Shown: positions 7,131 to 38,168, counted from the first letter of the whole stretch. The stretch: DNA of 63,403 bases, filler included, from Reclinomonas americana ATCC 50394 (GCA_048213135.1; 16 parts of 16 records of this genome joined end to end with filler, not necessarily neighbours in it); one strand, 5' to 3'. Numbers and translations: made by a program. The notes: generated from the sequence alone by a model not told the origin.

Positions 7131-10100
7131 TCAGCAGTACAGCAAATAGAGCGTATCCGCTGCGGCCACCAACTTGGAGCCGTCGTCGCTGATGGCCAAG
7201 GAAGTCCATCTGCGAGTGGATTCCCGAGTCGTCCACGTCACGCCGGCATCGGTGGAGGTGTAAATCTGAGCATTGGACGCCGCCGCCACCAGCTTGGTGC
7301 CGTCGCCGCTGATGGTCGCAGTACGCCAGGCGCGCACGGACTCGCGAGCCGTCCACGTTACGCCGGAATCAGTGGAGGTGTAGATCTGATCAGTACCCGC
7401 ACCCACCGCAGCCACCAGCTTGGTACCGTCACTGCTGGAGGCCACCGAAACCCAGAGGCGACTGGTATCACGAGGCGTCCACGTCACGCCCGAGTCAGTA
7501 GAGGTGTAAATCTGATAGTTCGATGCCGCAGCCACGAGCTTGGTGCCGTCGCTGCTGGAGGCCACTGATGCCCAGGGGAGATCGGACTCCCGAGCGGTCC
7601 ACGTCACACCGGAGTCTGTGGAGGTGTAGATCTGACCGCCTTGCACCACAGCCACCAACTTGGTGCCGTCGCTGTTGGAGGCCACTCCACGCCATTGGCG
7701 ACTGGATTCACGACCCGTCCACGTAACACCAGTATCAGTGGAGGTGTAGATCAGACCACCAATCACCGCGGCCACCAGCTTGGTGCCGTCGCTGTTCATG
7801 GCTACCGCCACCCACACCAGTGCGGACGCGCGAGCCGTCCACGTCACACCGGAGTCAGTGGAGATGTAAATTTGCGTTCCAGATCCCACAGCTGCCACAA
7901 TGGTGCCGTCACTGCTGGAGGCCACTGAGATCCAAGGAGCAGCCACTTGCAGGCCATTCGACCCCACCGATGCCCACGTCACACCAGAGTCGGTGGAGGC
8001 ATAAACCTGACCAAAGTTCACAACAGCCACCAGCTTGGTGCCGTCACTGCTGGAGGCCACCGAGAACCAGCTGCGACCGGAATCACGAGCCGTCCACGTC
8101 ACGCCAGAGTCAGTGGAAGTGTAAATCAGTCCACCGTTTACCGTGGCCGCCAGCCTGGTGCCGTCACTGCTAGAGGCGACAGACTTCCAATTGCGACTGG
8201 ATTCGCGCGCCGTCCACGTCTCGCCAGAGTCAGTGGAAGTGTAGATTTGATCACCGTCCGCCACCGCCACCAGCTTCGTGCCGTCACTGCTGGAGGCCAC
8301 AGACTTCCAATTGCGACTGGAATCGCGTGCCGTCCACGTCTCGCCAGAGTCAGTGGAAGTGTAGATTTGATCAGCGTCCGCCACCGCCACCAGCTTCGTG
8401 CCGTCACTGCTGGAGGTCACTGCACGCCAACGGCGATTAGAGTCACGAGCCGTCCACGTCACGCCGGAATCGGTGGAGGTGTAAATCTGACGAAATGATG
8501 CCGCAGCCACCAGCTTGGTCCCGTCGCTGCTGGAGGCCACTGCTGACCAGTTGGAAAAGGTAGCACGAGCAGTCCACGTCACGCCGGAGTCAGTGGAGAC
8601 GTAAACTCGATCGGATTGCGCCGCAGCCACGAGCACGGTGCCGTCGCTGCTGGAGGCCACTGAAATCCAGTTGCGAATGGACTCACGGGCCGTCCACGTC
8701 GCACCCGAATCGACTGAGGTGAATATCCGACCAGTAGTTGTCGGCCCACCCACAACGGCCACCAGCTTCTTGCCGTCACTGCTGGAGGCCACAGACTGCC
8801 AACTGCCCACGGACGAGAGAGTGGTACCGGCGCCGCAGGTTGAGCAAGCGGGATCTGTGACAACAACCAGCCGAAAAGAATGTCGGCAGTCAGTATTTCG
8901 TCAAGAGCAGCAACAGCATCACACCACTCACCACTCCATGAAATAGCGCAGAGACACGTGCCGTCGCTCTTGCATGTTCCGTGACCGGAGCAGGTGGTGG
9001 CCGCCACGCACTTCACATTGCACGAGACACCGTAATAGTCAGAGTTGCACTGGCATGTGCCGTCACTCTTGCACGTTCCGTTTCCGGAGCACGTGGTGGC
9101 CGCCACACAGTTGACGTTGCACGAAGCACCGTAATAATCAGAGTCGCACTGGCATGAGCCGTCAGGGTTGCACGTTCCGTGGCCAGAGCACGTGGTGGCG
9201 CGACTGCAGTTGGTGTAGTTGCCGGAGCACGTCGACTTGCAGTCCACAAAACGGCCGCTTGGAGCGCTGAAGCGTGCAAATGACGCCCCAGCAGTGCAGC
9301 GACCGGGGTCGGCGATGCACTCGCAGCGTGCGCCGCTGCTGGGTGCATTGCACTTGCAGAAGCCGGAGACGCACAGACCGCCATTGATGGCCTGTCCGTT
9401 GCTCAGCTTGGCGCCAGCATCCACCGACAGACAGTCGGCATTCACCGTGCACGCAGAACGCGGAAGCGAGCAGTACAGGCCGTCGAAGCCCGGCTTGCAC
9501 ACACACTTGCCACTGGTGGCATCACACGTGCCGTTGCCGCTGCAGGTGGCGGCTGCGTCGCAGTAGACGGAGCACGAGGTGCCGAAGTACTTGGCGTTGC
9601 AGATGCAAGTGGCGTCACTGGAGCAAGTGCCCTGGCCACTGCAGGTGGTGGAGGCCTGTGGGTGGGGGAGGGAAAGTGAGAAGGGAGGGGAGAGGGGAGG
9701 GGAGAAAAGGAGAGGGAATGGAGGAGAGGGTAAGGGTAAGGGTAAGGTGGAGGGAGAAGTGAGGGGAGAAGTAAGGTGAGAATTGAGAGGGAAATGGGGC
9801 AGAGGGAAGAGGGAAGAGGAAAGAGGGAGAGGGTGAGGGTGACAGTGGGAGAGAGAGAGAGAGAGAGAATCTAAAAAGACGACGGAGAAATGAGGGTTAG
9901 TGTGGGAAGGGAGAGGGTAAGAGAGAGCGAGAAAGAGAAAGAAGAAGAGCGATGGTACACGGAAGAGCCGAGAGACAACATCAAACGCGAGAAAAAAGTA
10001 GAACATGGGAAAGAGGACAGCGTGAGAAGAATGAAGANNNNNNNNNNNNNNNNNNNNNNNNNNNNNNNNNNNNNNNNNNNNTTAATTAATTAANNNNNNN

Positions 10101-11681
10101 NNNNNNNNNNNNNNNNNNNNNNNNNNNNNNNNNNNNNCGCATAAGAGAGCTGCGGAAAGAACGCAAGCGAATCTGTGAAAAGAAGGCGCCAAGCAGTTGA
10201 CAAGCCACTCACACGAACTCCGTCACACCAATCTCATCACCTCTTTCTCTCTCTCACGCTCACCTGGCAGAACTTGTCGCAATTCGTGCCATAATAGTTG
10301 AGGGCGCACTGATCACACGCCGCACCCGTCCAGTTCTTGGTGGAGCACACACACGACCCGGCGCTGTCGCACGTTCCACGACCGCTGCACGTGGTGGCCG
10401 CACTGCAGAACTTGCTGCAGGTCGCCCCGTAGTAGTTCGCCTTGCACTGGTTGCACGAGGTGCCGGTGAAGTTGCCGGTGCACACACACTGGCCATTTGT
10501 GTCGCACGTGCCATTGCCAGAGCACGTCTTGGCGGCGGTGCAGAACTTGGAGCAGTTGGCGGTGAAGTAGTTGGCGAGGCACACGCACTGCCCGCTCGAG
10601 TTGCAGCTGCCATTGTAGCTGCACGTGGTGCCGGGGTTGCAGAGGGCGCTGCACGTGGCGCCGTAGTAGTCCGGCTTGCACTGGTTGCACGAGGCGCCGG
10701 TGAAGTTGCCGGAGCACACGCACTGACCGCTCGAGTTGCAGGTGCCGTGGCCGTTGCATGTCGTCGCCGCAGTGCACAAGACGTTGCATGTGGCTCCGTA
10801 GTAGTTGGTGTTGCACTGGCAGGCACCAGCAGTGCTGCAGGTGCCGTTGTTGTTGCAGGTGGCGGGCGAGCACTTAGTTTCACACTTGGCACCGGAGAAG
10901 CCTGCGCTGCAGACGCATGCGCCAGCGCTGGTGCAGGAGGTAGCGTTGTTTGAGCATGTCACGTATGGGTGGCACGAGCAGAAGGGACCAGCCCAGCTGG
11001 AGGAGCGGAAATTTAAAAGGGAGTGGAGTGAGTGGGGGGAAATGCACGCAGAGAATGGGGGCAGCACAAGCGGACTCACGTGGCGCACACATTGGCACCG
11101 CTGCTCGTGGTGTAGCAGTTGTTGTGGCAAGTGCACTTTCCGCCGGAGCAGAAACCCTGTGTGGGAGGAGGAAGAAGGGTGAGAGAGAGAAAGGAAGAGA
11201 GAGAGAGAGAGTGGGAGGGAGGAGGAGGAGGGAGAGAGGGAGGAGGAGGAGAGAGAGGAAGAGAGAGAGAGAGGTAGGAAAGAGAGGAGGAAGAGAGAGA
11301 GGAGGAGGAGAAGAAGAAGAAGGAGGAGGACGAGTTCAATGACCTCAACAGTAACAATGCAATGCTCTAGCACGGCGAAGGGGCTGTGAGTGTGAGAGAG
11401 AGGACACGGATAGAATCTTTCCTTCGATATCTTTGCATGCAACACAGAAAACGCAACATTCACTCCGCACTCGTTGCCGGTGGCGGTGCACGTTCCGCCT
11501 GTGCGCGAATGGTTAATGTGTGTATGTGTATGTGTGTGTGTGTGAGAGAGAGAGAGTGAGAGAAATGAGCAGAGAGTGAGAGAGTCGTGCAAATGTCGGA
11601 TCATTACTTGCCTTGAGCGTACGCCATGCTGATCACTGTGACGAGGCACGCCACAAAGAGCGCACTCTTCATCGCACACAT
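7131..11681 (-). CDS. Array copy A: secreted EGF/laminin-EGF stalk + 14-repeat Asp-box double beta-propeller protein
   Basis: Six exons inferred: 11612-11681 (signal peptide MCAMKSALFVACLVTVISMAYAQ), ~11460-11498, 11080-11156, 10264-10996, 8932-9655 and 7131-8854. Splice phases are compatible. The last exon has 14 repeats of WxSVASSSDGTKLVA...QIYTSTDSGVTWTAR and ends YLLYC*. One intron spans a gap. Confidence 0.88.
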
Positions 11682-12426
11682 CGTCTGTGCGCAGGAAAGT
11701 ATTGATGTGAGTGAGCGAGTGAAAGAAAGGGTGAGTGGGGGAGAGCGGGTCACACGACATGTCGCATGGGCGGACGAGGGGAACAACAATCAACGCGCAA
11801 TGCAGAGAAGACACACACAGGAGGGGACGATGCAACATGCGCACGCATATGCATATGAAGAGGAGGAAGGCGGGGAGGAGACAGAGAGAGATAAGAGGAG
11901 AGGAGACTGAAACAGCACGCAAATGCGCAGTGTGCGTGTGAGCCAGTGGTCACGCGCGCACGCACAATAGGCGGACAAGTGAGAGCGATGTGAACTGATG
12001 CAGGAGCAGCAAGCGAACATTTACGAGAGGGCGAATGAACAGCCAGACAGCGGTAGCAGCACGGTTTTCCCACTGCTCACCGAAAGCGTGTTGAATATTT
12101 GAATCTTGCAAAGAAAGCGAAACTCCTTGTTGCGGATAAATTCAATACTCATTAGTTCTTTTCGGACAGCACTTCGCCGCTCTTCCCTGTCGCCGACGTC
12201 AGAAACCTCGAATACCACACATGTTTGTACTTCAGCGGTATTCTCCAAAAATGACGAAAATGGTCAGGATAACAACAAAACACTTCATTCACCACATTCC
12301 AATAATGCGACAAATGTCCACAGAATTATATATATGCATGTATTGAAGACCAAAGTTGAACAAGGCACAAAAAGCGCACCACGACGATCAGCCAGCTGAC
12401 TCGCGATCGCGCACACAAAAAAAACA

Positions 12427-12766
12427 TCAACAGTACAACAGATAAATGGTATCCGCAGCGCGCGACAGCCACCTTGGTGCCGTCGCCATTGGAGGCCACT
12501 GCATTCCAGTTGCGAGCGGCATCTTGAGGCGTCCACGACACGCCAGAGTCGATGGATGTATAGATTTGGCCACCGTTTGTCACGACAGCCACCAGCTTGG
12601 TGCCGTCATTGTTGGAGGCCGCACAACGCAAGCTGCGATTGGCATTGGTAACTCCAGCAGTCCACGTCACGCCAGAGTCGCGTGAGACGTACAACTGTGA
12701 TGAACTGGCCCCAGCCACCAGCACTCTACCATTTCTATTGAAGGCCACTGACACCCAGCTGCGGTA
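12427..12766 (-). pseudogene. Truncated remnant of a C/D-type propeller exon
   Basis: A C/D-type repeat 9 (VLVAGASSSQLYVSRDSGVTWTAGVTNANR) is joined directly to repeats 13-14 (VVTNGGQIY...DGTKV), with a frameshift just before the DTIYLLYC end. No 5' exons. The 3' flank resembles those of copies C and D. Confidence 0.85.
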
Positions 12767-12919
12767 ATGCCATTCAATTTTTGGAGAAACAAAGAAAACG
12801 AGGGGGAGGAAGAAGAGAGAGAGAGAGAGAAAGAGGAAGCACATGCACAACCTGGCAAAGCAAGACATGAAGCACAGCTGCCACTTCACGCACAAACCAA
12901 AAATGAAAAAACCCCTCAC

Positions 12920-15900
12920 TCAGCAGTACAGCAAATAGAGCGCATCCGCAGCGGCCACCAACTTGGAGCCGTCGCTGCTGATGGCCAAGGAAGCCCATCT
13001 GCGACTGGATTCACGAGCCGTCCACGTCACGCCGGCATCGGTGGAGGTGTAGATCTGATCATTGGACGCCGCCGCCACCAGCTTGGTGCCGTCGCCGCTG
13101 ATGGTCACACTCGTCCAGAAGCGCACGGGCCCGCGAGCCGTCCACGTTACACCGGAATCAGTGGAGGTGTAGATCTGATCGACATCCCCGCGTGTAGTCG
13201 CCACCAGCTTGGTGCCGTCACTGCTGGAGGCCACCGGACCCCAGAGGCGACTGGATTCACGAGGCGTCCACGTCACGCCCGAGTCAGTGGAAGTGTAAAT
13301 CTGATAGTTCGATGCCGCAGCCACGAGCTTGGTGCCGTCGCTGCTGGAGGCCACTGATACCCAGGGTAGACTGGGTGCCCGAGCCGTCCACGTCACACCA
13401 GAGTCTGTGGAGGTGTAGATATTACTAGATTCATCAACAGCCACCAACTTGGTGCCGTCGCTGTTGGAGGCCACTCCAGTCCAGTCACGAATAGACTCAC
13501 GAGGCGTCCACGTTACACCAGTATCAGTGGAGGTGTAGATCAGACCACCACTCGCCGCGGCCACCAGCTTGGTGCCGTCACTGTTCATGGCTGCCGCCAA
13601 CCACGACTGTGCGGACGCGCGAGCAGTCCACGTCACACCGGAGTCCGTGGAGATGTAAATTTGTGTTCCAGGTCCCACAGCTGCCACGACGGTGCCGTCA
13701 CTGCTGGAGGCCACCGAGAACCAAGGAGCGGCCACTTGCAGGCCATTCGACCTCACCGATGCCCACGTCACACCAGAGTTAGTGGAAATATAGACCTGGC
13801 CGAGGTTCACAACAGCCACCAGCTTGGTGCCGTCACTGCTGGAGGCCACCGAGAACCAGCTGCGACCGGAATCACGAGCCGTCCACGTCACGCCAGAGTC
13901 AGTGGAAGTGTAAATCAGTCCACCGTTTACCGTGGCCGCCAGCCTGGTGCCGTCACTGCTGGAGGTCACAGACGTCCAATTACGACCGGATTCGCGCGCT
14001 GTCCACGTCACGCCCGAGTCAGTGGAAGTGTAGATTTGATCACCGCCCGCCACCGCCACCAGCTTCGTGCCATCACTGCTGGAGGCCACAGACTTCCAAT
14101 TGCGACCGGATTCGCGTGCCGTCCACGTCTCGCCCGAGTCAGTGGAAGTGTAGATTTGATCAGCGTCCGCCACCGCCACCAGCTTCGTGCCGTCACTACT
14201 GGAGGCCACTGCACGCCAAAAGCGACCAGAGTCACGAGCCGTCCACGTCACGCCGGAATCGGTGGAGGTGTAAATCTGACGGAAAAGTCCCGCAGCCACC
14301 AGCTTGGTCCCGTCGCTGCTGGAGGCCACTGCTGACCAGGCGGCAAAATCACCGCCAGCAGTCCACGTCACGCCGGAGTCAGTGGAGACGTAAACTCGAT
14401 CAAATAGCGCCGCAGCCACGAGCACGGTGCCGTCGCTGCTGGAGGCCACTGAAATCCAGTTGCGACTGGACTCACGGGCCGTCCACGTCGCACCCGAATC
14501 GACTGAGGTGAATATACGACCAGTAGTTGTCGGCCCACCCACAACGGCCACGAGCTTCTTGCCGTCACTGCTGGAGGCCACAGACTGCCAACTGCCCACG
14601 GACGCGAGAGTGGTATCAGCGGCGCAGGTTGAGCAAGCGGAACCTGATGGCAAACAGCCGAAGAGAATGTGGGTCGGAGTGACAGGTTAACTAGAGCAGC
14701 AACGGTACCACACCACTCACCACTCCATGACATATCACACAGACACGTGCCGTCAGGGTTGCACGTTCCGTGACCAGAGCACGTGGTGGCGCGACTACAG
14801 TTGGTGTAGTTGCCAGTGCATCCCGACTTGCAGTCCACAAAACGGCCGCTTGGAGCATTGAAGCGCGCAAATGACGTCCCAGCAGTGCAGCGACCGGGGT
14901 CGGCGATGCACTCGCAGCGTGCGCCGCTGCTGGGTGCATTGCACTTGCAGAAGCCGGCGACGCACAGACCGCCATTGATGGCTTGACCGTTGGTCAGCTT
15001 GGCGCCAGCATCCACCGACAGACAGTCGGCATTCACCGTGCACGAAGAGCGCGGCAACGCGCAGTACAGGCCGTCGAAACCCGGCTTGCACACACACTTG
15101 CCACTGGTGGTGTCACACGTGCCGTTGCCGCTGCAGGTGGTGGCTGCGTCGCAGTAGACAGAGCACGAGGTGCCGAAGTACTTGGGGTTGCAGATGCACG
15201 TGGCGGTACTGGAGCACGTGCCCTGGCCGTTGCAGGTGGTGGAGGCCTGCGGGTGGGGGAAGGGGAAGGGAGAAGGGAAGGAAGAGGGTAAGGGAGAAGG
15301 ATGAGGGAACGGAGGTGAGGGTGAGGGTAAGGGTAGGTACAGGGAGAATTTGAGAGGGAATGGAGGAGAGGGGGAGGGAAGAGGGAGAGAGAAGAGGGAA
15401 ATGGGGGAGAGGGAGAGGGTGGGGTGAGGGTGAGGGTGGGGTGAGGGTGAGGGAGAGTGAGAGAGTGGCGAGTCTCATCGTAGGTGGGGACAGCGGGAGA
15501 GAGAGAGAGGAGGGAGAGAGAGAGGAGGAGAGAGAGAGAAGAAAGAAATAACGAAAGGACGGAACGGAAGTAAAGTAGGTAAGGGTTNNNNNNNNNNNNN
15601 NNNNNNNNNNNNNNNNNNNNNNNNNNNNNNNTTAATTAATTAANNNNNNNNNNNNNNNNNNNNNNNNNNNNNNNNNNNNNNNNNNNNTGCATAAGAGAGC
15701 TGCGGAAAGAACGAAAGCAAATCTGTGAAAAGAAGGCGCCAAGCAGTTGACAAGCCACTCACACGAACTCCGTCACACCAATCATCACCTCTTTCTCTCC
15801 CTCACTCACCTGGCAGAACTTGTCGCAATTCGTGCCATAATAGTTGAGGGCGCACTGATCACACGCCGCGCCAGTCCAGTTCTTGGTGGAGCACACACAC

Positions 15901-17138
15901 GACCCGGCGCTGTCGCACGTTCCACGACCGCTGCACGTGGTGGCCGCACTGCAGAACTTGCTGCAGGTCGCCCCGTAGTAGTTCGCCTTGCACTGGGTGC
16001 ACGAGGCACCGGTGAAGTTGCCGGTGCACACACACTGGCCATTTGTGTCGCACGTGCCGTTGCCGGAGCAGGTCTTGACGGCGGTGCAGAACTTGGAGCA
16101 GTTGGCGGTGAAGTAGTTGGCGAGGCACACGCACTGCCCGCTCGAGTTGCAGCTGCCATTGTAGCTGCAGGTGGTGCCGGGATTGCAAAGGGTGCTGCAC
16201 GTGGCGCCGTAGTAGTCCGGCTTGCACTGGTTGCACGAGGCGCCGGTGAAGTTGCCGGAGCACACGCACTGACCGCTCGAGTTGCAGGTGCCGTGGCCGT
16301 TGCATGTCGTCGCCGCAGTGCACAAGACGTTGCACGTGGCGCCATAGTAGTTGGTGTTGCACTGGCAGGCACCAGCAGCGCTGCAGGTGCCGTTGTTGTT
16401 GCAGGTGGTGGGCGAGCACTGCGGCACAGGCGAAGATGAAACCCGCTGCGTCGGGGACTGTGTCGGAGAGTGAGCAACGAAAAAACAGAAGAGGTAGAAA
16501 GCGAGAAAGTGGAGGAGGAGGCGGGGAGGGAGAGGAAGTGGAGGTATAGAGATGAGGGAAGAGTGGGAGGAGGAGGAGGAGGCGCAGAGGGGGAGGAAGA
16601 GCGAGAGGGAGTGGAGGTATAGAGATGAGAGAGAGGGGAAAGTGGGATGAGGAGGAGGAGGAGGAGGAGGAGGAGGAGGAGGAGGAGGAGGCGGGGAGGG
16701 AGAGGAAGAGCGTGACGGAGTTGAGGTATAGAGATGAGAGAGAGGGGAGAGTGGGAGGAGGAGGAGGAGGAGGAGGCGGAGGAGGAGGAGGAGGAGGAGG
16801 AGGCGTAGAGGGGGAGGAAGAGCGAGAGGGAGTGGAGGTATAGAGATGAGCGAGAGGGAGGGAGGGAGGGAGAGAGAGAAAGAGAGAGAGAGAGGAGGGC
16901 AAGGAGGAGGCAGAGGAGGAGGAGAAGGAGGGGAAGGAGGAGGAGGAAGATCTCAATGCTCTCAAGTGCGGTGCTCAGGCACGGCGAAGGGGCTGTGACG
17001 GAGTATGAGAGAGAGGAGGACACGGAAAGAATCTTCACTTCGATATCTTGCATGCAAAACGCAACATTCACTCCGCACTCGTTGCCGGTGGCGGTGCACG
17101 TTCCGCCTGTGCGCAAAAGGTTAATGTGTGTATGCAAT

Positions 17139-17174
<36 letters not shown>

Positions 17175-17305
17175 CGAGAGAAAGAAAAGAGAAGAGAGAG
17201 AGAGAGTCGCACAAATGTGTCGGATCATTACTTGCCTTGAGCGTACGCCATGCTGATCACTGCGACGAGGCACGCCACAAAGAGCGCAATTTTCATGGCC
17301 CACAT
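12920..17305 (-). CDS. Array copy B: secreted EGF stalk + 14-repeat propeller protein (shortest stalk; exon 3 absent)
   Basis: Signal peptide exon MWAMKIALFVACLVAVISMAYAQ (ATG 17305), exon 2 at ~17070-17107, EGF exons 15810-16418 and ~14722-15246, propeller exon 12920-14643 ending YLLYC*. Closest paralog of copy A. Confidence 0.85.
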
Positions 17306-23900: not shown

Positions 23901-24005
23901 ACAAGTGTTTGTGTGTCGTCAATAATCGTACTTGCCTTGCGCGTAAGCCATGCTGGCCACCGCGATGAGGCACACCACAAAGAGTGCAATCTTCATTACA
24001 CACAT
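17965..24005 (-). CDS. Array copy C: secreted long EGF stalk + 14-repeat propeller protein
   Basis: Signal peptide exon MCVMKIALFVVCLIAVASMAYAQ (ATG 24005). Exon 2 is presumably in the gap at 23784. EGF exons ~23534-23611, ~22724-23457 and 19878-~22253 (truncated by a gap). Propeller exon 17965-~19700 ending YLLYC*. Confidence 0.83.
19878..21800 (-). repeat. Coding tandem repeat of 93/99-bp EGF units (31/33 aa) in copy C
   Basis: Near-identical, mostly alternating units CSPSTTCSGHGTCKSDGTCQCNSDYYGASCNVN and CVAATTCSGHGTCKSDGTCQCTGDYTNASCN. Confidence 0.92.
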
Positions 24006-24754: not shown

Positions 24755-27700
24755 TCAACAGTACAACAGATAAATGGTATCCGCAGCGACAACCACCTTG
24801 GTGCCGTCGCCGCTGGAGGATACTGACGCCCAGTTGCGATTGGCATCACGAGCCGTCCACGTCACGCCAGAGTCGGAGGAGGAGTAGATTTGGCCACCGT
24901 TTGTGACGACAGCCACCAGCTTGGTGCCGTCACTGCTGGAGGCCACGGATCGCCAGGCGCGATTGGCGTCAGTCAGTCGAGCAGTCCACGTCACGCCAGA
25001 GTCGGTGGAGGTGTAGATCGTATTGTTGCTTGCCACAGCTACTAGCTTCGTGCCGTCGCTGCTGGAGGCGACTGAGAACCAGCTGCGATTGGCATCAGTC
25101 TGTCTGGGCGTCCATGTCACGCCAGAGTCGGTAGAGGTGTAAATCTGACCACCACTCACCACAGCCGCCAGCTTGGCGCCGTCACTGCTGGAGGCCACAC
25201 TACGCCAGTTGCGACTGGAATCTTGCGTTGACCAATTGGCACCAGAGTCGGTGGAGGTGTAAAGCAGAGAGTTTTGCGCCGCAGCCACCATCTTGGTGCC
25301 GTCGCTGCTGGAGGCGAGAGAGCTCCAACTGCGAGTGCCATTCGTGACTCCAGCAGTCCACGTCACACCAGAGTCGCGTGAAACAAACAACTGAGATGAA
25401 GTGGCCCCAGCCACCAGCACGCTACCGTCGCTATTGGAGGCCACCGATGTCCAGGAGCGCTGAGACTCGCGCGCCGCCCACGTCACGCCAGAGTCATTCG
25501 AGACATAAATGTGAGTAGTATTACCCACAGCCGCCACCACGTTACCGTCCCCGCTTACGGTCACTGCACTCCATACAACAGAACCTTGTGCACGCAATCC
25601 GGCGGAAGCGAGCGCTGTCCACGTTGCACCAGAGTCAGTGGAGGTGTAAATCTGACCCGGGACCACACCGGCCACAAGCCTGGTGCCGTCACTGCTGGAG
25701 GCCACTGAACCCCACTGGCGACTCGAGTCACGAGCCGTCCACGTCACGCCAAAGTCGGTGGAAACGTAGATCTGACCGGGTGACGCCACAGCCACCAGCT
25801 TCGTGCCGTCACTATTAGAGGCCACTGATGTCCAGTTGCGAGTGGCATCTCGAGGCGTCCACGTCACGCCAGAGTCAGTAGAGGTGAAAAGCCGACCAGA
25901 TGCCTCAGCGGCCAATAGGTTGGTGCCGTCGCTGCTGGAGGCAAGAGATATCCAGTTGCGTACGAGGTCACGAGCTGTCCACGTCGCACCAGAGTTAGTG
26001 GTGGTGTAAAGTTGACCAGATGTCTCCGCTGCCACAAGCTTCGTGCCATCACTGCTGGATGCAACCGAAATCCAGGCGCGAATGGAATCGTGAGGGGTCC
26101 ACGTCACGCCAGAGTCAGTGGAGGTGTAAATCTGGCTGTTGTTCGCCACAGCGACCAGCTTGGTGCCATCGCTGCTAAAGGCCACAGATCGCCACTGCCG
26201 ATTCGCATCCGTAAGTCGAGCCGTCCACGTCACGCCCGAGTCTGTGGAAGTGAAAATCTGGCTGCTATTTGCCACAGCCGCCAACTTGGTGCCGTCACTA
26301 TTAGAGGCCACTCCAGTCCACTGGCGATTGGCATCCGAAAGTCGCGCTGTCCATGTCGCACCAGAGTCAGCGGACGTGAAAAGTAGGCCGATGTTAACAG
26401 CAGCCAGCAGCTTGGTGCCGTCACTGCTGGAAGTCAGTGCTGTCCACCGACTAACAAATGCAAGAGTTGCAGCAGCAGCGCAAGTCGAGCACGCAGAATC
26501 TGTTTTTTGAGAAAACGCGATCATGTCAGCATTCCAACAAAGTCTTGTAAATTCACCATAAACAGCATCATCACTCACCACTCCATGATATGCCACAGCT
26601 GCAAGTGCCGTCACTCTTGCATGTTCCGTGACCAGAGCACGTTGTCGCCGCCACACAGTTCGAAACAGCAGTGCCGCACGCCGCCCCGTCAAAACCAGCG
26701 CTGCACTGGCACGTACCGTCACTCTTGCACGTTCCATGTCCAGAGCACGTGGTGGACGGACTGCAGTTGCAACTGGCATTGGTGTAGTCGCCAGTGCACT
26801 GGCACGTACCGTCCGTCTTGCATGCTCCGTGGCCAGAGCACGTCGTGGCCGCCACACAGTTCACGTTGCACGATGCGCCGTAGTAGTCAGAGTTGCACTG
26901 GCACGTACCGTCACTCTTGCACGTTCCATGTCCAGAGCACGTCGCAGTGGGACTGCAGTTGCAACTGGCATTGGTGTAGTCGCCAGTGCACTGGCACGTG
27001 CCGTCCGTCTTGCACGNNNNNNNNNNNNNNNNNNNNNNNNNNNNNNNNNNNNNNNNNNNNTTAATTAATTAANNNNNNNNNNNNNNNNNNNNNNNNNNNN
27101 NNNNNNNNNNNNNNNNAGTGCACTGGCACGAGCCGTCAGGGTTGCACGTTCCGTGGCCAGAGCACGTGGTGGCAGGATTGCAGTTGGTGTAGTTGCCGGA
27201 GCACGTCGACCTGCATTCCACAAAACGGCCGCCTGGAGTGCTGAAGCGCGCAAACGACATGAAGCCGGAGCAACGACCGGGATCGGCGATGCACTCGCAG
27301 TGCGCGCCGCTGCTGGGTGCATTGCACTTGCAGAAGCCGGAGACGCACAGACCGCCATTGATGGCTTGGCCGTTGGCCAGCTTGGCGCCGGCGTCAACCG
27401 AGAGGCAGTCGGCGTTCACCGTGCATGAAGAACGCGGAAGCGAGCAGTACAGGCCGTCGAAACCCGGCTTGCACACGCACTTGCCGCTGGCGGTGTCGCA
27501 CGTGCCGTTACCGCTACAGGTGACAGCCACGTCGCAGTAAACGGAGCACGAGGTGCCGTAGTACTTGGCGTTGCAGATGCATGTTGCGTCGCTGGAGCAA
27601 GTGCCATGGCCGCTGCAGGTGGTGGAGGCCTGGCGGGTGGGGAAAGGGGAAGGAATAGGGGGAGTGAGAAGGGAGAGGGAGAAGGGTGAGGGAATGGAGG

Positions 27701-28007: not shown

Positions 28008-28078
<71 letters not shown>

Positions 28079-29487
28079 CCTCCCTCTCTCTTTCTCTCTT
28101 TCTCTCTCCACCACACGCACCTGGCAAAACTTGTCGCAATTCGTGCCATAATAGTTGAGGGCGCACTGATCACACGCCGAGCCCGTCCAGTTCTTGGTGG
28201 AGCACACACACGATCCGGTGCTGTCGCACGTTCCGCGACCGTTGCACGTGGTGGCTGCGTCGCAGAACTTGCTGCACGTGGCACCGTAGTAGTTCGCCTT
28301 GCACTGGTTGCACGAGGCGCCGGTGAAGTTGCCGGTGCACACACACTGGCCATTTGTGTCGCACGTGCCGTTGCCGGAGCAGGTCTTGACGGCGATGCAG
28401 AGCTTGGAGCAGTTGGCGGTGAAGTAGTTGGTGAGGCACACGCACTGCCCGCTCGAGTTGCAGCTGCCATTGTAGCTGCACGTGGTGCCGGGGTTGCAGA
28501 GGGTGTTGCATGTGGCGCCGTAGTAGTCTGGCTTGCACTGGTTGCACGAGGTGCCGGTGAAGTTGCTTGTGCACACACACACGCCGCTCGAGTTGCAGGT
28601 GCCGTGGCCGTTGCATGTCGTCGCCGCAGTGCACAAGACGTTGCATGTGGCACCGTAGTAGTTGGTGTTGCACTGGCAGGTACCAGCAGTGCTGCAGGTG
28701 CCATTGTTGTTGCAGGTGGCGGCCGAGCACTTTGTGTCACACTTGGCACCGGAGGAGCCCGCGTTGCAGACGCATGTGCCACTGCCGGTGCACGAGGTGG
28801 CGTTGTTTGAGCATGTCACATACGGATGACACGAGCAGAAGGGACCAGCCCAGCTGCATGAGCGGAAGAGTGGAGTGAGTGGGGGGAAATGCACACAGAG
28901 AATGGGGCAGCACAAGCGAACTCACGTGGCGCAAACGCTGGTACCGCTGCTGGTGGTGTAGCAGTTGTTGTGGCAGGTGCACTTTCCGCTGGAGCAGAAA
29001 CCCTGTGAGGAAGGAGGGGAGGGATGAGAGAGAGAGAGGAGGAGGAGAAGGAGGAGGTGGAGGAGGAGAGAAAGGAGGAGGAGAGAGGAGGTGGAGGAGG
29101 AGGAGGAGGGAGGAAGATTTCAATGCCCTCAACAGTAACAGTGCTCAGCACGGCGAAGGGGTTGTGAGTGTGTGAGAGAGGAGGACACGCAACGGAGAAT
29201 CTTTCTTTCGATATCTTGCATGCAAAACAGAAAACGCAACATTCACTCCGCACTCGTTGCCGGTGGCGGTGCACGTTCCGCCTGTGCGCAAATGGTTAAT
29301 GTGTAAGTGAGTGTGTGCGAGAGAGAGCAAGAAGAGAAAGAAAAGAGCAGAGAGAGAGAGAGAGAGAGTGAGAGAGTCGCGCAAATTTATATGTACATGT
29401 GTCGGTTCATTGTTTACCTTGCGCGTACGCCATGCTGGTCACTGCGACGAGGCACGCCACAAAGAGTGCAATCTTCATTGCACACAT
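24755..29487 (-). CDS. Array copy D: secreted EGF stalk + 14-repeat propeller protein
   Basis: Signal peptide exon MCAMKIALFVACLVAVTSMAYAQ (ATG 29487) and the same exon layout as A. The stalk exon is interrupted by the gap at 27017. Propeller exon 24755-~26499 ending YLLYC*. Closest paralog of C. Confidence 0.85.
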
Positions 29488-30171: not shown

Positions 30172-33100
30172 TCAACAGACTAGCAGATAAATGGTATCGG
30201 AAGCGACAATCGCCTTGGTGCCGTCGCCGTTGGAGGCCACAGATCCCCAGCCGCGAGCGGCATCTCGAGGCGCCCACGTCACGCCAAAGTCGGTGGACTT
30301 GTAAATCCTACCTCCGACGCCCTCAGTTGCCACCAAACTGGCACCGTCACTGCTGGAGTCCACCCCACTCCAGTAGCGCACAGTATCACGAGCCATCCAC
30401 GTCGCGCCAATATCTGTGGAGGTGTAGATTTGCCCACCGTTCACCGCGGCCACCAGCAACGTACCATCACCATTGGAGGCCACTGTGGTCCAATTCCGAC
30501 TGGTATTTCGTGGGATCCACGAGTCGCCAGTGTCATTGGAAGTGTAGATCTGACCACCGTTTACAACGGCCACCAGAATCGAGCCGTCGCTGCTGGAAGC
30601 CACTGAACCCCAAGAGCGACTGAACTCTCGCGGGTTCCACGTCACGCCTGCATCAGTCGACAGGAAGATCTGACCACCGTTGACCACAGCGGCTAGCACG
30701 CTGCCGTCACTGCTTGATGTTACTCCAGCCCAGCTGCGACTTGACTCACGAGCCGTCCACGAAACGCCATAGTCAGTGGATACAAAAATCTTGTCACTGT
30801 CAGCAACAGCCACCAGTAAGCTACCGTCGCTGCTGGAGGCCATTCCAGTCCAAGTGCGAAGCGACTCGCGCCCCGACCACGTCTCGCCACCGTCAGTGGA
30901 GATGTAAATCGGTGTGAGAATACCGGCAGCCATCGCAACGTTACCGTCGCTGCTCAAGGCCACATTAGTCCACAGACCGTCACCAGTGCTGGTGCCGTAT
31001 GCATGCAAGCCAGACATCAATTCCGTCCAAGTCTCGCCAGAGTCAGTGGAAGTGAAAATCTCACCAGGGCTCGCCACTGCCACCAGATGGGTACCGTCAC
31101 TGCTAGAGGCGACTGACACATAGATGCGATTGAGTCCGCGTTCCGTCCACGTGACACCCGAATCAGTGGACGTGTATATCTGGCCGAAATTGAAAATCCC
31201 AGTAACAGCCACCAGCTTGGTACCGTCACTGCTGGAGGCCACTGAATTCCAGAAGCGCCGAGCATCAGTAGCTCGAGCCGTCCACGTCACGCCAGAATCT
31301 GTCGAGGTGAAAATCTGGCCAGTTGCACCCAAGTTTCCGTTGTCCACAGCCACCAGCTTGGTACCGTCACTACTGGATGCCACACCAGCCCAGTTGCGAC
31401 TGGAATCACGAGCCGTCCACGTCAGGCCAGAATCGGTGGAGGTGAAAATGCGGTTGTTTTGCACTACAGCCACCAGCTTGGTACCGTCGTCGCTCGAGGC
31501 CACAGAAACCCAGTTGCGACTGGAATCACGAGCAGTCCACGTCACCCCAGAATCAGTGGAGGTGTAAAGTAGACCAACAACCACAGCAGCCACCAGCTTC
31601 GTTCCGTCACCGCTCGAGGCCACTGTCGCCCACTGAGCACCGAAAGCCCGAGCAGTCCAAGTCACTCCAGAGTCAGAGGACGTAAAAATCTGGGTATCCT
31701 GGCCAGCAGCCACCAGCTTGGTGCCGTCACTGCTGGAAGCCACTGCAGTCCAAAGGCGTTCGGCATCCGTTAGGCGAGCCGTCCACATCTTGCCCGAGTC
31801 CGTGGAGGTGAAAATCTGACCACCAAACGAAACAGCCACAAGTTTGGTTCCGTCACTGCTGGAGGCCACTGACTTCCACCGGCCGGCAAACGCAAGTGTC
31901 GGATACGCAGTGCATGAGGAACAAGCAGGATCTGGCGTGCAACACAGCGGACAGGTCAGCGCACTGGTGACTTCACACGCTCAAGAAGATCATCCCGACT
32001 TACCACCACTCCATGAGAATTCGCAGCTGCAAGCTCCATCGCTGCCACAGGTGCCGTGGCCGGAGCACGTCGTTGCAGCCGCGCAGTTTGGATTACACGG
32101 GAACACGTAAACCTGTTTGGCCACTGCCGCCAGCTTGCTGCCGTCACTGCTGAGCGCCACAGCCGACCAGAAACGCGCGGAATCACGGGACGTCCACGTC
32201 ACTCCCGAGTCATTCGAAGTGTAGATCAGGCCGTTGTTCTCCGCAGCCGCCAGCCGGCTACCGTCGCCGCTGGAGGCCACCGAGATCCACGCACGCGCGG
32301 AATCACGAGCCGTCCATGTCGCGCCCGAGTCAGTCGACGTGTAGATCTGGTCACCCTGCGCAGCAGCCACCAGCTTGGTGCCGTCGCTGCTGGAGGCCAC
32401 TGACCGCCAGCTGCGAACGGAATCACGAGCTGTCCAGTTCTCGCCCGAGTCAGTCGAGGAGTAGATCTGATCGTTGTTCGCAACAGCCACCAGTTTGGTG
32501 CCGTCACTGCTGGAGGCCACCGAAACCCAGGTGCGAGCGGAATCACGAGCCGTCCACGTCACGCCAGAGTCGGTGGAGGTGTAAATCTGACCGGTACTGA
32601 AAGCTCCACCTTCAGCAGCCACAAGTTTGGTGCCGTCGCTGCTGGAGGCCACCGAGATCCAGGTGCGAGCGGAATCACGTGGAGTCCACGTCACGCCAGA
32701 GTCAGTGGAGGTGTAAATCTGCCCACCGTTACTCGCAACAGCCACCAGCTTGGTGCCGTCACTGTTCAACGCTACAGACTTCCACCGGCGATCGGAATCG
32801 CGGCCCGCCCACGTCGCGCCTCCGTCAGCCGACGTGTAGATCCGAGTATCCGACCCCACCGCCGCCATCTTGGTGCCGTCACCACTGTAGGCAATTGCAA
32901 TCCACGACGTGAAGCCGAGAAGTCCTTGGGAGCTCACTTCAGTCCACGCGACGCCAGAATCAGCGGAGGTGTACATCTGACCACCAGCGCCAACGCCAGC
33001 CACCAGCTTGGTACCGTCACTGCTGGAGGTCACCGATGCCCACAGGCGACTGGATTCACGAGCCGTCCACGTCTCACCAGAGTCAGTGGAGGTGTAGATC

Positions 33101-36100
33101 TGGCCGCCGCTCACCGTCGCCACCAGCTTCGTGCCGTCACTGCTGGAGGTCACTGCACTCCACGTGCGATTGGATTCACGAGCCGTCCACGTCTCGCCCG
33201 AGTCAGTGGAGGTGTAGATCTGATCATTTCGCGCAACAGCCACCAACTTGCTGCCGTCACTGCTGGAGGCCACAGACCTCCAGTTGCGAGTGGATTCACG
33301 AGGAGTCCAGTTCTCGCCCGAGTCAGTGGAGGTGAATATCTGATCACCGCTGGCCACCGCCACGAGATAGGTGCCGTCACTACTGGATGCCACTGAAGCC
33401 CAGCTGCGATTGAAACCACGAGGCATCCACGTCACACCCGAGTCAGTGGAGGTGTAAATCAGTCCACTTTGATCCGCCGCCACGAGCTTGCTGCCGTCGT
33501 CGTTGGAGGCCACCGAGAACCATTCACGGCCCTGATCACGAGCCGTCCACGTCACACCCGAGTCGGCCGAGGTGTAGATACGATCACCGAAATTCGCAAC
33601 GGCCACCAGTTTGGTGCCGTCGCCGCTGGAGGCCACCGACGTCCAGTGACGATTCGATTCACGAGCCGTCCACGTTGCACCTGAGTCGGTGGAGGTGAAG
33701 ATCTGGGCATTCTGCGCCACAGCCACCACCTTGGTGCCGTTACTGCTGGAGGCCACCGAAACCCAGCTGCCGACATATCCGAGAGCGGCACCACCCGGAG
33801 CAGAGCAGACGGAGCATGTGGGCCCTGTGACAACGATTCAGTACGATATTTGAAGATTAATATCTTAACATCAACTGTACCACGCACCACTCCAAGGGCT
33901 TGCGCAGTTGCACGTTCCATCGGAGCCACACGCACCGCGTCCATTGCACGTCGTAGAGGCCTCACAGTAAACGCTGCAAGATGAACCGTAATAATGTTCT
34001 ACGTTGCACTGACACGTGCCGTTACTGTTGCACGTTCCGTGACCCGAGCACGTGGCAGTGGGACTGCAGTTGCAGCTGGCATTGGTGTAGTCGCCCGTGC
34101 ACAGACACGAACCGTCAGTTTTGCATGTTCCATGACCGGAGCACTTGACCGATGGGCTGCAGTTGCAGCTGGGATTGGTATAGTCGCCCGTGCACGTGCA
34201 TGTGCCATTGACGTTACATGTACCGTGGCCAGAGCACGTGACAGTGGGACTGCAGTTGCAGTTCGAATTGGTGTACCCACTCGCGCACAGACACGTCCCA
34301 TTACTCTTGCATGTTCCGTGACCAGAGCATGTGACAGTGGGACTGCAGTTGCAGTTGGCATTGGTGTAGTCACCCGTGCACAGACACGTGCCATCAGTCT
34401 TGCACGTCCCGTGACCCGAGCACGTTGCGGTGGGATTGCAATTGCAGCTGGCATTGGTGTAGCCGACGGCGCACTGGCATGTGCCATCACTCTTGCACGT
34501 TCCATGACCAGAGCACGTCGTGGTCGGATTGCAATTGCAGCTGGCATTGGTGTAGCCGACGGCGCACTGGCATGTGCCATCACTCTTGCACGTTCCATGG
34601 CCGGAGCATGTCGCGGTCGAACTGCAGTTACAGCTCGCGTTAGTGTAGTCGCCCGCGCACGTGCAGGATCCATTGGCGTTGCACGATCCGTGACCAGAGC
34701 ACGTGGTGCTGGGACTGCAGTTGCAGCTGGCATTGGTGTAGTCGCCCGTGCACGTGCAGGATCCATTAGTGTTGCACGATCCGTGACCAGAGCACGTCGC
34801 AGTGGGACTGCAGTTGCAGTTGGCATTGGTGTAGTCGCCCGTGCACACGCAAGTTCCATTGGCGTTGCACGTTCCGTGACCAGAGCACGTCGCAGTGGGA
34901 CTGCAGTTGCAGCTGGCGTTGGTGTAGTCGCCAGTGCACTGACACGTGCCGTCACTCTTGCAGGTTCCGTGACCAGAGCACGTAGCAGTGGGACTGCAGT
35001 TGCAGCTGGCATTGGTGTAGTCGCCCGTGCACTGGCATGTGCCGTCAGTGTTGCACGTTCCGTGACCAGAGCACGTGACGCTGGGACTGCAGTTGCAGCT
35101 GGCATTGGTGTAGTCGCCCGTGCACTGGCATGTGCCGTCAGTGTTGCACGTTCCGTGACCAGAGCACGTGACGCTGGGACTGCAGTTGCAGCTGGCATTG
35201 GTGTAGTCGCCCGTGCACGTGCAGGATCCATTAGTCTTGCACGTTCCGTGACCAGAGCACGTTGCGGTGGGACTGCAGTTGCAGTTGGCATTGGTGTAGT
35301 CGCCCGTGCACTGACATGTACCGTCAGTCTTGCACGTTCCATGTCCAGAGCAGGTGGAAGTGGGACTGCAGTTGCAGGTGGCGTTGGTGTAGTCGCCCGT
35401 GCACTGGCAAGTTCCATTGGCGTTGCACGTTCCGTGACCAGAGCACGTGACGCTGGGACTGCAGTTGCAGGTGGCGTTGGTGTAGTCGCCCGTGCACTGG
35501 CAAGTACCATTGGCGTTGCACGTTCCGTGACCAGAGCATGTTGTAGTGGGACTGCAGTTGCAGCTGGCGTTGGTGTAGTCGCCCGTGCAGAGACAGGTAC
35601 CGTCACTCTTGCACGTTCCATGGCTGGAGCACGTCGCGGTGGGACTGCAGTTGCAGCTGGCATTGGTGTAGTCGCCGGTGCATTGGCAGGTGCCGTCCGT
35701 CTTGCACGTTCCNNNNNNNNNNNNNNNNNNNNNNNNNNNNNNNNNNNNNNNNNNNNTTAATTAATTAANNNNNNNNNNNNNNNNNNNNNNNNNNNNNNNN
35801 NNNNNNNNNNNNCGTGCACTGGCACGTGCCGTCCGTCTTGCAGGCTCCGTGGCCAGAGCACGTCGTGGCCGCCACACAGTTCACGTTGCACGATGCGCTG
35901 TAGTAGTCCGAGTTGCACTGGCATGTGCCGTCACTCTTGCACGTTCCATGTCCAGAGCACGTGGTAGAGGGACTGCAGTTGCAACTGGCATTGGTGTAGT
36001 CGCCCGTGCACTGGCACGTGCCGTCGCTCTTGCACGTTCCGTGACCGGAGCATGTCGTGGCCGCCACGCAGTTCACGTTGCACGATGCGCCGTAGTAGTC

Positions 36101-38168
36101 CGAGTTGCACTGGCATGTGCCGTCACTCTTGCACGTGCCGTGACCAGAGCATGTGACGCTGGGACTGCAGTTGCAGCTGGCATTGGTGTAGTCGCCCGTG
36201 CACTGGCACGAGCCGTCGGGGTTGCATGTTCCGTGACCAGAGCACGTCGTGGCAAAATTGCAGTTGGTGTAGTTGCCGGAGCACGTCGACTTGCAGTCCA
36301 CAAAACGGCCGCTCGGTGCGCTGAAGCGCGCAAACGACATAAACCCAGAGCAGCGACCGGGATCGGCGATGCACTCGCAGTGCGCGCCGCTGCTGGGTGC
36401 ATTGCACTTGCAGAAGCCCGACACACAGAGACCGCCATTGATGGCTTGGCCGTTGGCCAGCTTGGCGCCGGCATCCACCGACAGACAGTCGGCATTCACC
36501 GTGCACGAAGAGCGCGGAAGCGAGCAGTACAAGCCGTCGAAACCCGGCTTGCATACGCACTTGCCGCTGGCGGTGTCGCACGTGCCGTTGCCACTGCAGG
36601 TGAAAGCCGCGTCGCAGTAGACAGAGCACGAGGTGCCGTAGTACTTGGCGTTGCAGATGCATGTTGCGTCACTGGCGCAAGTGCCCTGGCCGCTGCAGGT
36701 GGTGGAGGCCTGCGGGTGGGGGAGAGACGAGTGAGAAGGGAGGGGAGAAAAGGAGAGGGAGAAGGGCGAGGGAATGGAGGAGAGGGTGAGGGTAAGGTAG
36801 AGGGAGAAGTACGGGAAGAAGACAGGGGAGAAATGAGAGGCAATGGAGGAGAGGGGGAGGGAAGAGGGAGAGAGAAGAAGGAAATGGGGGNNNNNNNNNN
36901 NNNNNNNNNNNNNNNNNNNNNNNNNNNNNNNNNNTTAATTAATTAANNNNNNNNNNNNNNNNNNNNNNNNNNNNNNNNNNNNNNNNNNNNAGACAGAAGA
37001 GGGAAATGGGGGACAGAAAAGAGGGAAGAAGAAAGAGAGAGAGGGTGAGGGTAAGGGTGAGAGATAGAGAAACAGGCGAAACAGGAGAAAATGAGAAGAA
37101 TGCAGAAAGCAGATTGCACAACACGGAAAGTGAGATTGGTGAGGCGAGACTACAGCGCGAAGAGAAGAAAGAGAAAACAGACTTTGTTGTGGAAGATGGC
37201 AAGTGAGTATTCCACTCTCTCTCTCTCTCACGCCCTCCCTCTCTCTTTTGTACACTCTCTCCTCTCTCCCTCACTCACTCACCTGGCAGAACTTGTCACA
37301 CGTAGTGCCATAATAGTTGAGGGCGCACTGATCGCACGCCGCGCCAGTCCAGTTCTTGGTGGAGCACACACACGACCCGGCGCTGTCACACGTTCCACGA
37401 CCGCTGCACGTGGTGGCTGCGTCGCAGAACTTGCTGCAGGTCGCTCCGTAGTAGTTCGACTTGCACTGGGTGCACGAGGCGCCGGTGAAGTTGCCGGTGC
37501 ACAGACACTGGCCATTGGCGTCGCACGTGCCGTTGCCGGAGCACGTTTTGACGGCGGTGCAGAACTTGGAGCAGTTGCTGGTGTAGTAGTTAGTGAGGCA
37601 CACGCACTGTCCGCTCGAGTTGCAGCTGCCGTTGAAGTTGCACGTGGTGCCGGGATTGCACATGGTGCTGCACGTGGCACCGTAGTAGTCCGGCTTGCAC
37701 TGGTTGCACGAGGCGCCAGTGAAGTTGCCAGTGCACACGCACTGGCCGCTCGAGTTGCAGGTGCCGTGGCCATTGCATGTCATTGTTGGATTGCAGAAGA
37801 TGTTGCACGTGGCGCCGTAGTAGTCCGTGTTGCACTGGCAGGCACCTGCAGTGCTGCAGGTGCCGTTGTTGTTGCAAGTGGCGGGCGAGCACTTTTGCTC
37901 ACACTTGGCACCGGAGAAACCCGCGTTGCAGACACAGGTGCCACTGCTGGTGCACGAGGCGGCGTTGTTTGAGCATGTCACGTATGGGTGGCACGAGCAG
38001 AAGGGACCGGCCCAGCTGCATGAGCGAAAAAGGGAGAGGAGTGAGTGAGTGGGAAGAAACACAAAGAGAATGGGCAGCACGGACGACTCACGTGGCGCAC
38101 ACATTGGCACCGGTGGTGGACGTGAAGCAGTTGTTGTGGCAAGAGCACTTTCCGCCGGAGCAGAAACC
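30172..38168 (-). CDS. Array copy E: EGF stalk + two 14-repeat propeller heads separated by one EGF module (5' exons lost in gap)
   Basis: EGF exons ~38092-38168, ~37283-38015, 35813-~36709 and ~33888-35712. Head 1 plus linker EGF at ~32004-33824 (...QVYVFPCNPNCAAATTCSGHGTC...WSG). Short intron with GTAAGT donor, then head 2 at 30172-~31931 ending YLLVC*. Linkage across the gaps at 35713 and 36891 is assumed. Confidence 0.8.
33990..35712 (-). repeat. Coding tandem repeat of 93-bp (31-aa) EGF units in copy E
   Basis: Units of CSPxxTCSGHGTCxxxGxCxCTGDYTNASCN repeated up to the gap. Confidence 0.92.

Follow-up and report, generated by a model that had tools for sequence, protein, structure and literature searches.

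Several described protein families resemble, in one part or another, the locus that we report here. The GH74 xyloglucanases and OXG-RCBH have two tandem seven-bladed Asp-box propellers built from a single unbroken run of repeats; their blades are irregular and their Asp-boxes number 4+5, according to the available part of a 2009 survey of Asp-box propellers (PMC2716378). The same partial text describes the Asp-box propellers of Sortilin/Vps10 receptors as non-enzymatic and ligand-binding (PMC2716378). In teneurins, extracellular EGF modules are followed by a beta-propeller, and in tenascins a tenascin-type EGF rod ends in a globular head. The design principle is familiar from EGF-plus-propeller proteins such as LDLR, and SorLA, a Vps10-domain receptor, also contains EGF. 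Here we compare these families with a locus of Reclinomonas americana ATCC 50394 (GCA_048213135.1). The stretch of DNA analysed, which we call the window, has 63,403 nucleotides (nt) and consists of 16 parts from 16 records joined with filler, not necessarily neighbours in the genome. Between positions 7131 and 38168, on the minus strand, we find five paralogous intron-bearing genes (g1 to g5) and one head remnant. Each gene is predicted to encode a secreted, disulfide-rich rod-and-head protein, with a signal peptide expected to be cleaved, a Cys-rich segment from two very small exons, an EGF rod and a terminal head that we model as a double Asp-box propeller (heads h1a and h1b in g1, h2 to h5 in the other genes).

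What ties the rod to the head is the exon junction between them. A phase-1 intron of ~70-85 nt precedes every head exon (6/6), and the junction reads TGGAGTG/GT...CAG/ in five of the six; for h3 the upstream exon lies in a gap and the donor is retained. This intron interrupts the last EGF after the fifth Cys, and the sixth is supplied by the first Cys of the head exon. In g1, the inner head h1a and the EGF that follows it are read in one exon (open reading frame, ORF, 31990-33837, stop-free). Phase and split module argue strongly for EGF stalk and propeller head forming one protein, in which the head would be joined to the stalk by way of the phase-1 intron that cuts the last EGF. The rod-and-head layout (signal peptide, Cys-rich EGF rod, terminal head), which a previous sequence-only reading of the window had put forward, holds both at the level of splice sites and in the fold model. 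The six heads, with lengths in amino acids (aa), and the EGF module between the two heads of g1 are:

33825-32095, minus strand: head h1a, 577 aa, 14 blades, with Pfam matches to Sortilin-Vps10 (E 8e-24) and BNR
32004-32094, minus strand: inter-head EGF module, in the same exon as h1a, with its sixth Cys in the next exon (h1b)
31932-30175 (stop to 30172), minus strand: head h1b, 586 aa, 14 blades, followed by the stop codon
24758-26500, minus strand: head h2
17968-19701, minus strand: head h3
12923-14644, minus strand: head h4
7134-8855, minus strand: head h5, 574 aa, the head chosen for modelling

All six heads (574-586 aa) have exactly 14 units, spaced mostly by 40 aa with a few spacings of 41-47 aa, and the spacing from unit 7 to unit 8 is longer, at 45-50 aa. 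Each of the six also has 13 Asp-box matches; blade 14, which ends in ...YLLYC-stop, has none. In the available part of the 2009 survey, Asp-boxes sit between strands 3 and 4, and 13 Asp-boxes in 14 blades are more regular than any Asp-box propeller that it describes (PMC2716378). Blade cores are 65-77% identical within one head, and blades of the same index are barely more alike across heads (74% vs 70%). In the four heads scanned (4/4), the Pfam family BNR/Asp-box (PF02012) scores 39.8-47.6 bits against a cut-off of 27, and Sortilin-Vps10 (PF15902) matches the heads with E 1e-23 to 7e-29, as 5-7 short partial stretches.

We modelled the fold of h5 with AlphaFold2 (AF2) and a 30-row alignment. 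The model has a mean predicted local distance difference test score (pLDDT) of 89.7 and a predicted template modelling score (pTM) of 0.60, with low confidence only at residues 1-14 and 299-303, the latter being the 7/8 linker. The best PDB match found by Foldseek is 2ymu (E 2.6e-24, template modelling score, TM, 0.68), and all the best matches are tandem seven-bladed propellers; further matches include many GH74 xyloglucanases (E ~1e-23, TM 0.46-0.66, 14-18% identity), Aip1 and Pwp2/UTP proteins. The head is thus modelled as two tandem seven-bladed propellers. The sequence-only reading had described 14 repeats of ~40 aa per head, a longer linker between repeats 7 and 8, and a double propeller; the counts agree in all six heads, and the AF2 model and its Foldseek matches give the same fold. 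In the model the last blade has three strands only and there is an extra N-terminal strand at residues 9-13, which probably supplies the fourth strand of blade 14. A disulfide that links the C-terminal Cys to the second Cys of the head exon probably staples the closed ring. Among 24 aligned relatives from outside the window, none has Cys in the columns of this terminal pair; one of them, P0025, has a Cys a few residues off at each end.

The gene models that carry these heads are:

38168 to 30172, minus strand: gene g1, with two heads; exons 1-2 unassembled, gap 38299-38398
38168-38092, minus strand: g1 exon 3
38015-37283, minus strand: g1 type-A EGF exon
36709-33888, minus strand: g1 type-B exon and EGF array, with gap 35713-35812
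33824-32007 (or -32004), minus strand: g1 exon with h1a and EGF
31931-30172, minus strand: g1 exon with h1b
29487 to 24755, minus strand: gene g2; exon 1 29487-29418 (GT donor), microexon 29281-29247, exon 3 29002-28926, type A 28853-28121, type B and EGF 27629-26579 with gap 27017-27116, head h2 exon 26499-24755
24005 to 17965, minus strand: gene g3; exon 1 24005-23936, microexon presumably in gap 23784-23883, exon 3 23611-23535, type A 23457-22725, type B and long EGF array from 22253 into gap 19778-19877, head h3 exon 19700-17965
17305 to 12920, minus strand: gene g4, complete; exons 17305-17236, 17106-17072, 16418-15810, 15246-14721 and 14643-12920
11681 to 7131, minus strand: gene g5, complete; exons 11681-11612, 11498-11464, 11156-11080, 10996-10264, 9655-8932 and 8854-7131
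11612-11681 (g5), 17236-17305 (g4), 23936-24005 (g3) and 29418-29487 (g2), minus strand: signal-peptide exons
11611-11606 (g5), 17235-17230 (g4), 23935-23930 (g3) and 29417-29412 (g2), minus strand: donor sites of intron 1
11464-11498 (g5), 17072-17106 (g4) and 29247-29281 (g2), minus strand: identical copies of the 35-nt microexon
~12760-12427, minus strand: head remnant, h2/h3-like, with blade 9 and blades 13-14 and a frameshift before its YLLYC end (YLLYC 12444-12430)

Assembled exons are open in all five genes. The complete models of g4 (987 aa) and g5 (1120 aa) have zero internal stops; in both, the splice phases are consistent and the splice sites canonical, the donor of intron 1 being GC and, in g4, the remaining introns GT-AG. 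Where gaps interrupt a gene, the open blocks are 569 and 1800 aa on either side of the gap in g1, 476 and 726 aa on either side of the gap in g2, and 23, 1062 and 578 aa in g3. The head remnant is a pseudogene piece, clearly broken, and the array therefore also loses copies.

Aligning the 5' regions of the paralogs gives a common exon plan. In four of the four assembled first exons, the 70 nt of exon 1 code for a hydrophobic leader of the form M..AYAQ, and the donor of intron 1 is GC (AAG/GCAAGT) in g3, g4 and g5, whereas g2 has GT. The second exon, entered in phase 1 and left in phase 0, is a microexon of 35 nt between the signal-peptide and GFCSGG exons; it is required because the phases fail without it, and a 44-nt stretch that spans it and both its splice sites is identical in the three assembled copies. 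Exon 3 (77 nt) starts with GFCSGG. Exon 4 (type A, 733 nt) encodes laminin/DSL-like EGF, and exon 5 (type B) begins, after a CAG acceptor, with ASTTC and encodes a conserved Cys-rich insert and, after it, tenascin/teneurin-type EGF modules in an array of variable length; the final exon is the head. Pfam matches in the stalk exons are EGF_Teneurin, EGF_TEN, EGF_2, DSL and EGF_laminin, with E down to 7e-87. The number of EGF modules per stalk is ~11 in g4, ~15 in g5 and >30 in g1 and g3, and the stalk lengths of g1-g3 are minima because gaps fall inside their EGF arrays. Gene g4 has neither the GFCSGG exon nor the beginning (~120 nt) of the type-A exon, and its frame is nevertheless kept. In the corresponding g4 intron (16419-17071, minus strand), a long CCT/CTC-type microsatellite stands where exon 3 and the 5' part of exon 4 would be, and a new CAG acceptor at 16421-16419 is in phase.

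The four assembled first exons all encode a signal peptide. In the two complete models (g4 and g5), no 19-aa Kyte-Doolittle window exceeds 1.6 beyond the first 30 residues, and the chains end directly after the last strand with no C-terminal tail. These observations support proteins that would be secreted without a membrane anchor. Several statements of the sequence-only reading can be judged from these models. Its five same-strand paralogs, six heads and one remnant are the ones that our gene models and coordinates recover, its signal peptide is present as a hydrophobic leader in each of the four copies with an assembled first exon, and its failure to see a transmembrane helix or tail is repeated by the hydropathy scan of g4 and g5, a crude test. 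The exon structure that it took to be shared stands as a common plan; it had missed the 35-nt microexon between the signal-peptide and GFCSGG exons, and g4 has no GFCSGG exon.

The relatives of the head are very numerous. An exhaustive profile search of 1.84 billion representatives finds 72,516 at E<=0.001, of which 33,273 are at E<=1e-10 and 7,289 at E<=1e-30. A word-indexed search with the head gives 5444 proteins at E<=0.001 among the 8000 candidates scored, and 1496 among 8000 scored when longer proteins are searched. The listed relatives are 32-71% identical to the head, and bacterial and phage relatives share with it a near-consensus 40-aa blade (38-71% identity over part or whole of the head). 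They come from metagenomes or from named bacteria, among them Verrucomicrobia, Kiritimatiellia, Planctomycetes, Acidobacteriota and Proteobacteria, and the matches that name an organism are all bacterial. None of the 240 head relatives listed comes from a eukaryote transcriptome source, though such sources do occur in the stalk search. Domains precomputed on the relatives include collagen repeats, phage collar, S74 chaperone, cadherin-like and Ig-like domains and, on most of those listed, PF25852, which the Atlas names DUF6242_C (scores at most 0.82, a lead only). Matches in BFVD include a Caulobacter phage tail fibre, an S74 auto-processing fibre protein and a Hokovirus collagen-repeat protein, with alignments over a single propeller at ~30% identity and 2-4 A root mean square deviation. 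The head itself is thus not new: it is a member of a very large family of BNR/DUF6242_C type, found mostly in bacteria and phages. In their sources these proteins are labelled 'photosystem II stability/assembly factor-like' or 'WD40/YVTN/BNR-like repeat-containing'. Like the heads described here, their propeller is often terminal on a fibrous or repetitive stalk (collagen, tail-fibre collar or S74 chaperone, cadherin, Ig). Unlike the R. americana proteins, none of the 336 head relatives listed has the six-Cys pattern of EGF.

The converse holds for the stalk, whose best relative is 38% identical: none of the 120 stalk relatives listed has more than one Asp-box. This check of the combination covered the top-listed relatives, and rarer combinations may exist. 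The conserved Cys-rich insert of the stalk gives 216 pattern matches in metagenome contigs, none of them confirmed, and a degenerate pattern for the C-terminal signature of the head matches four times in the window and not at all in metagenome contigs. In the literature searched we did not find a characterised family with an EGF stalk and a double Asp-box head, nor DUF6242 in connection with eukaryotes. An architecture not previously described, as the sequence-only reading had it, therefore stands for the combination, which is absent from the relatives listed and from the literature searched, and does not stand for the head, which is of a large known bacterial and phage family.

Membership in the described families was considered for each of them. 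With GH74, the heads have in common the two tandem seven-bladed Asp-box propellers, found in the AF2 model and in its Foldseek matches; GH74 proteins differ in being enzymes ~130-200 residues longer, with irregular blades, 4+5 Asp-boxes and a substrate cleft. We do not place the heads in GH74: phmmer gives E 4e-7 over ~186 residues only, the profile match at E 2e-20 is partial, and structural identity is 14-18%. The stalk matches EGF_Teneurin and EGF_TEN, and these are the only matches to teneurins. Teneurins, which carry eight EGF modules, are anchored in the membrane in type II orientation and have a six-bladed NHL propeller, a YD shell and a toxin-like C-terminus. These features are all absent here: the proteins begin with a signal peptide, show no membrane segment, and their propeller is of the Asp-box and not the NHL kind. 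Tenascins are among the sequence relatives of the stalk; they cover 24-35% of the query, in the EGF part only, and the Pfam scan finds no FN3, fibrinogen globe or N-terminal assembly domain. The Pfam model of Sortilin/Vps10 does match the blades. The Vps10 domain, however, is one ten-bladed propeller with 10CC modules on a membrane receptor, and here we find 14 blades as 7+7, no 10CC and no anchor, that is, no hydrophobic segment after the signal peptide; the PF15902 matches are short stretches (e.g. positions 2-64 of 446). Ycf48/HCF136, a single seven-bladed propeller, was rejected (PRK13684 at 46 bits vs a cut-off of 326 in one of four heads, Ycf48 in PDB at E 2e-4), and so was membership among the sialidases. 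Finally, the structure 2ymu ('highly repetitive propeller structure', 577 residues) resembles the heads in having 14 near-identical repeats in two seven-bladed propellers. It differs in being WD40-type and bacterial, with 17% identity and no Asp-boxes, and the likeness is one of design, not of close kinship.

In a quick, midpoint-rooted tree with bacterial and metagenomic relatives, the six heads form one group, with 99 in the Shimodaira-Hasegawa-like approximate likelihood ratio test (SH-aLRT), and they divide into the clades (h1a,(h4,h5)) and (h1b,(h2,h3)). The two heads of g1 fall in different clades, because h1a groups with h4/h5 and h1b with h2/h3. Two histories would give this pattern: a two-headed ancestor, of whose heads the single-headed genes retained one or the other, or acquisition of the inner head of g1 through exchange. 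The heads are 57-87% identical, and between the head subfamilies the synonymous divergence (dS) is 0.66-1.05, whereas for the same gene pairs the stalk exons have dS 0.10-0.41 (89-98% identity in the insert). Low stalk and high head dS suggest gene conversion, or later exchange limited to the 5' halves. The ratio of non-synonymous to synonymous rates (omega) is below 1 throughout, at 0.29-0.61 in heads and 0.05-0.31 in stalk exons, which indicates purifying selection. About 100 bases 3' of the stop codons are alike between paralogs (e.g. 7130-7000, 12919-12800, 17964-17850, 24754-24650), and the duplication unit therefore includes the 3' flank.

A single origin of the heads would mean that a bacterial or phage-type head module entered the lineage once, possibly by horizontal transfer, and was then duplicated in a tandem same-strand array. 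There is a precedent in the teneurins, in which, according to the available part of the source, a choanoflagellate-like ancestor is believed to have acquired a bacterial extracellular module, encoded in one large exon, that became fused to EGF repeats (PMC6297184). Three points limit the case for transfer here: the composition of the heads is host-like (G+C at third codon positions, GC3, 60-70% vs 56-59% in neighbouring genes), most head relatives carry no taxon label, and near-consensus repeats inflate the identity to bacterial proteins.

As to function, we modestly favour heads that are non-catalytic binding modules, held off the cell by a stiff EGF rod. The ligand would be extracellular, with glycans or other cells' surfaces as the most plausible candidates; the roles of lectin, opsonin, prey-capture or surface-coat protein that the sequence-only reading proposed are conjectural. 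A conserved scaffold with variable loops, the lack of invariant acidic residues outside the motifs and the fibre-head contexts of the relatives lend limited support to binding. Asp-box propellers that are not enzymes have precedents in sortilin (PMC2716378) and, apparently, in CyRPA. In the usual propeller topology the variable loops (strand 2-3, and strand 4 to the next strand 1) share one face, and the SDG turn and the Asp-box lie opposite. When head codons are split by repeat position into the scaffold and a loop class (two loop regions and one Asp-box position), omega is 1.11 in loops vs 0.16 in scaffold for h4/h5, the youngest pair, and 0.50-0.70 vs 0.18-0.24 for older pairs, a comparison that is partly circular in that the classes are drawn from the repeat consensus. 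Since loops vary between paralogs and the scaffold is conserved, the array would be a small repertoire of related binding specificities. Apart from that circularity, other points weigh against this interpretation. A loop omega of ~1 may reflect relaxed constraint instead of diversifying selection. The splicing of EGF and head exons together is read from phases and from conservation between paralogs, and the anchor test is a crude one, of hydropathy and not by DeepTMHMM or a glycosylphosphatidylinositol (GPI) predictor. With pTM 0.60 and pLDDT <50 at residues 1-14, the placement of the two propellers relative to each other and the closing disulfide are uncertain. Among enzymes of known structure, GH74 xyloglucanases come closest (profile E 2e-20, to 6p2l), and the best NCBIfam match is to a family named glycosylhydrolase (NF045728, F510_1955), with E down to 4e-44.

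These last two matches, the tandem 7+7 Asp-box fold that the heads share with GH74, and the fact that characterised Asp-box propellers are mostly glycosidases in the available part of the survey (PMC2716378) are what would make the heads tethered GH74-like or F510_1955-like glycoside hydrolases carried by an EGF stalk, with a polysaccharide from prey, from a host or from the organism's own wall as substrate. We consider this improbable. Identity to GH74 is low, as given above, and the NF045728 scores (114.1-150.8 bits in four of four heads) are all under the curated cut-off of 175. The heads have short uniform loops and 13 Asp-boxes in 574-586 aa, against ~700-770 aa and irregular blades with 4+5 Asp-boxes in GH74. 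The alignment of the six heads has 24 invariant Asp, all at two repeat-motif positions per blade, and no invariant Glu, so that outside the structural repeat motifs no acidic residue is invariant, and variation is greatest in the very loops that would be expected to border an active site. The variability of the loops also bears on the proposal that these are structural components of a matrix, coat, wall or scale layer, whose heads mediate self-assembly or cross-linking and not recognition of a foreign ligand. Long disulfide-rich EGF rods without an anchor, paralogs that differ in rod length, a two-headed form that could cross-link and an EGF part most like tenascin- and teneurin-type repeats would all fit such a role. 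A surface for self-assembly is expected to be conserved, yet loop positions differ strongly between paralogs and the heads have diverged further than the stalk exons (57-87% vs 89-98% identity); the even mature Cys counts of g4 and g5 give no sign of covalent oligomers. We regard a structural role as unlikely. That the array is decaying or unexpressed DNA, or a collapsed-repeat artefact of assembly, without function, we consider very improbable. It is true that seven of the 15 gaps in the window fall within the array, several of them in EGF arrays, that one head remnant is clearly broken and that g4 has lost an exon. Every assembled exon in the five genes is nevertheless open, omega is well under 1 wherever stalk or head scaffold is compared, the paralogs retain their splice sites and phases, and many substitutions separate them, unlike collapsed copies.

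Extending the binding interpretation, we put forward tentatively, as a scenario that is rather doubtful in its entirety, that a fibre-head propeller of bacteria or phages was captured once, spliced onto an EGF rod and expanded, and that loops then diversify while gene conversion homogenises the stalks, giving a germline-encoded repertoire for the surfaces of microbes or prey. If true, such a repertoire would parallel phage receptor-binding fibres in its design and teneurins in its origin. The parts are of known kinds, tenascin/teneurin-type EGF and BNR/DUF6242_C-type propellers. What appear to be new are this combination of EGF and head, the near-perfect 14-blade head with its putative Cys staple, and the tandem expansion in a eukaryote. 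The locus would offer a clear case of a secreted protein that has an animal-like EGF rod with a bacterial-type, near-idealised Asp-box double propeller, in which the exon structure still records the joining. If the heads do bind glycans or cell surfaces, the array would be a small recognition repertoire of a protist and would give the first functional handle on a bacterial and phage family of tens of thousands of members that has no assigned role. The head is also a possible natural scaffold for repeat-protein design.

The whole window has a G+C content of ~55%. Its 15 gaps consist each of 44 N, a 12-base linker with stops in all frames, TTAATTAATTAA, and another 44 N (100 bases in all, e.g. 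10038-10137 and 19778-19877), and those that fall inside EGF arrays indicate that EGF repeats are hard to assemble. Among the stop-to-stop ORFs are six frames of ~590-700 aa packed with SSSDGTKLVA...IYTSTDSGVTWT repeats, the frames of the heads, with several Cys-rich ORFs upstream of them. Antisense to the EGF arrays there are long open frames on the plus strand, rich in Arg, Ala and Val (19830-22334, 834 aa, and 33985-35760, 591 aa). We reject plus-strand ORFs over EGF arrays (e.g. 19830-22334) as genes and read them as by-products of GC-rich repeats. A very large plus-strand gene at ~42282-51222 has Gly-rich beta-helix-like repeats and a Cys-rich part, with zero Pfam matches at E<=0.001; one of its ORFs, 47269-49440, adjoins repeat clusters of the Chlamydia polymorphic membrane proteins in the Atlas (score 0.93, 162 shared features), which we take as a lead only. 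On the flanking ORFs, the only Pfam matches are to TPR families, in 2 of 32 ORFs. A gene rich in TPR_10 and TPR_12 (E 7e-111 and 2.5e-110) lies directly upstream of the array at 38399-41065 on the minus strand and enters the gap 38299-38398, the same gap that conceals the start of g1.

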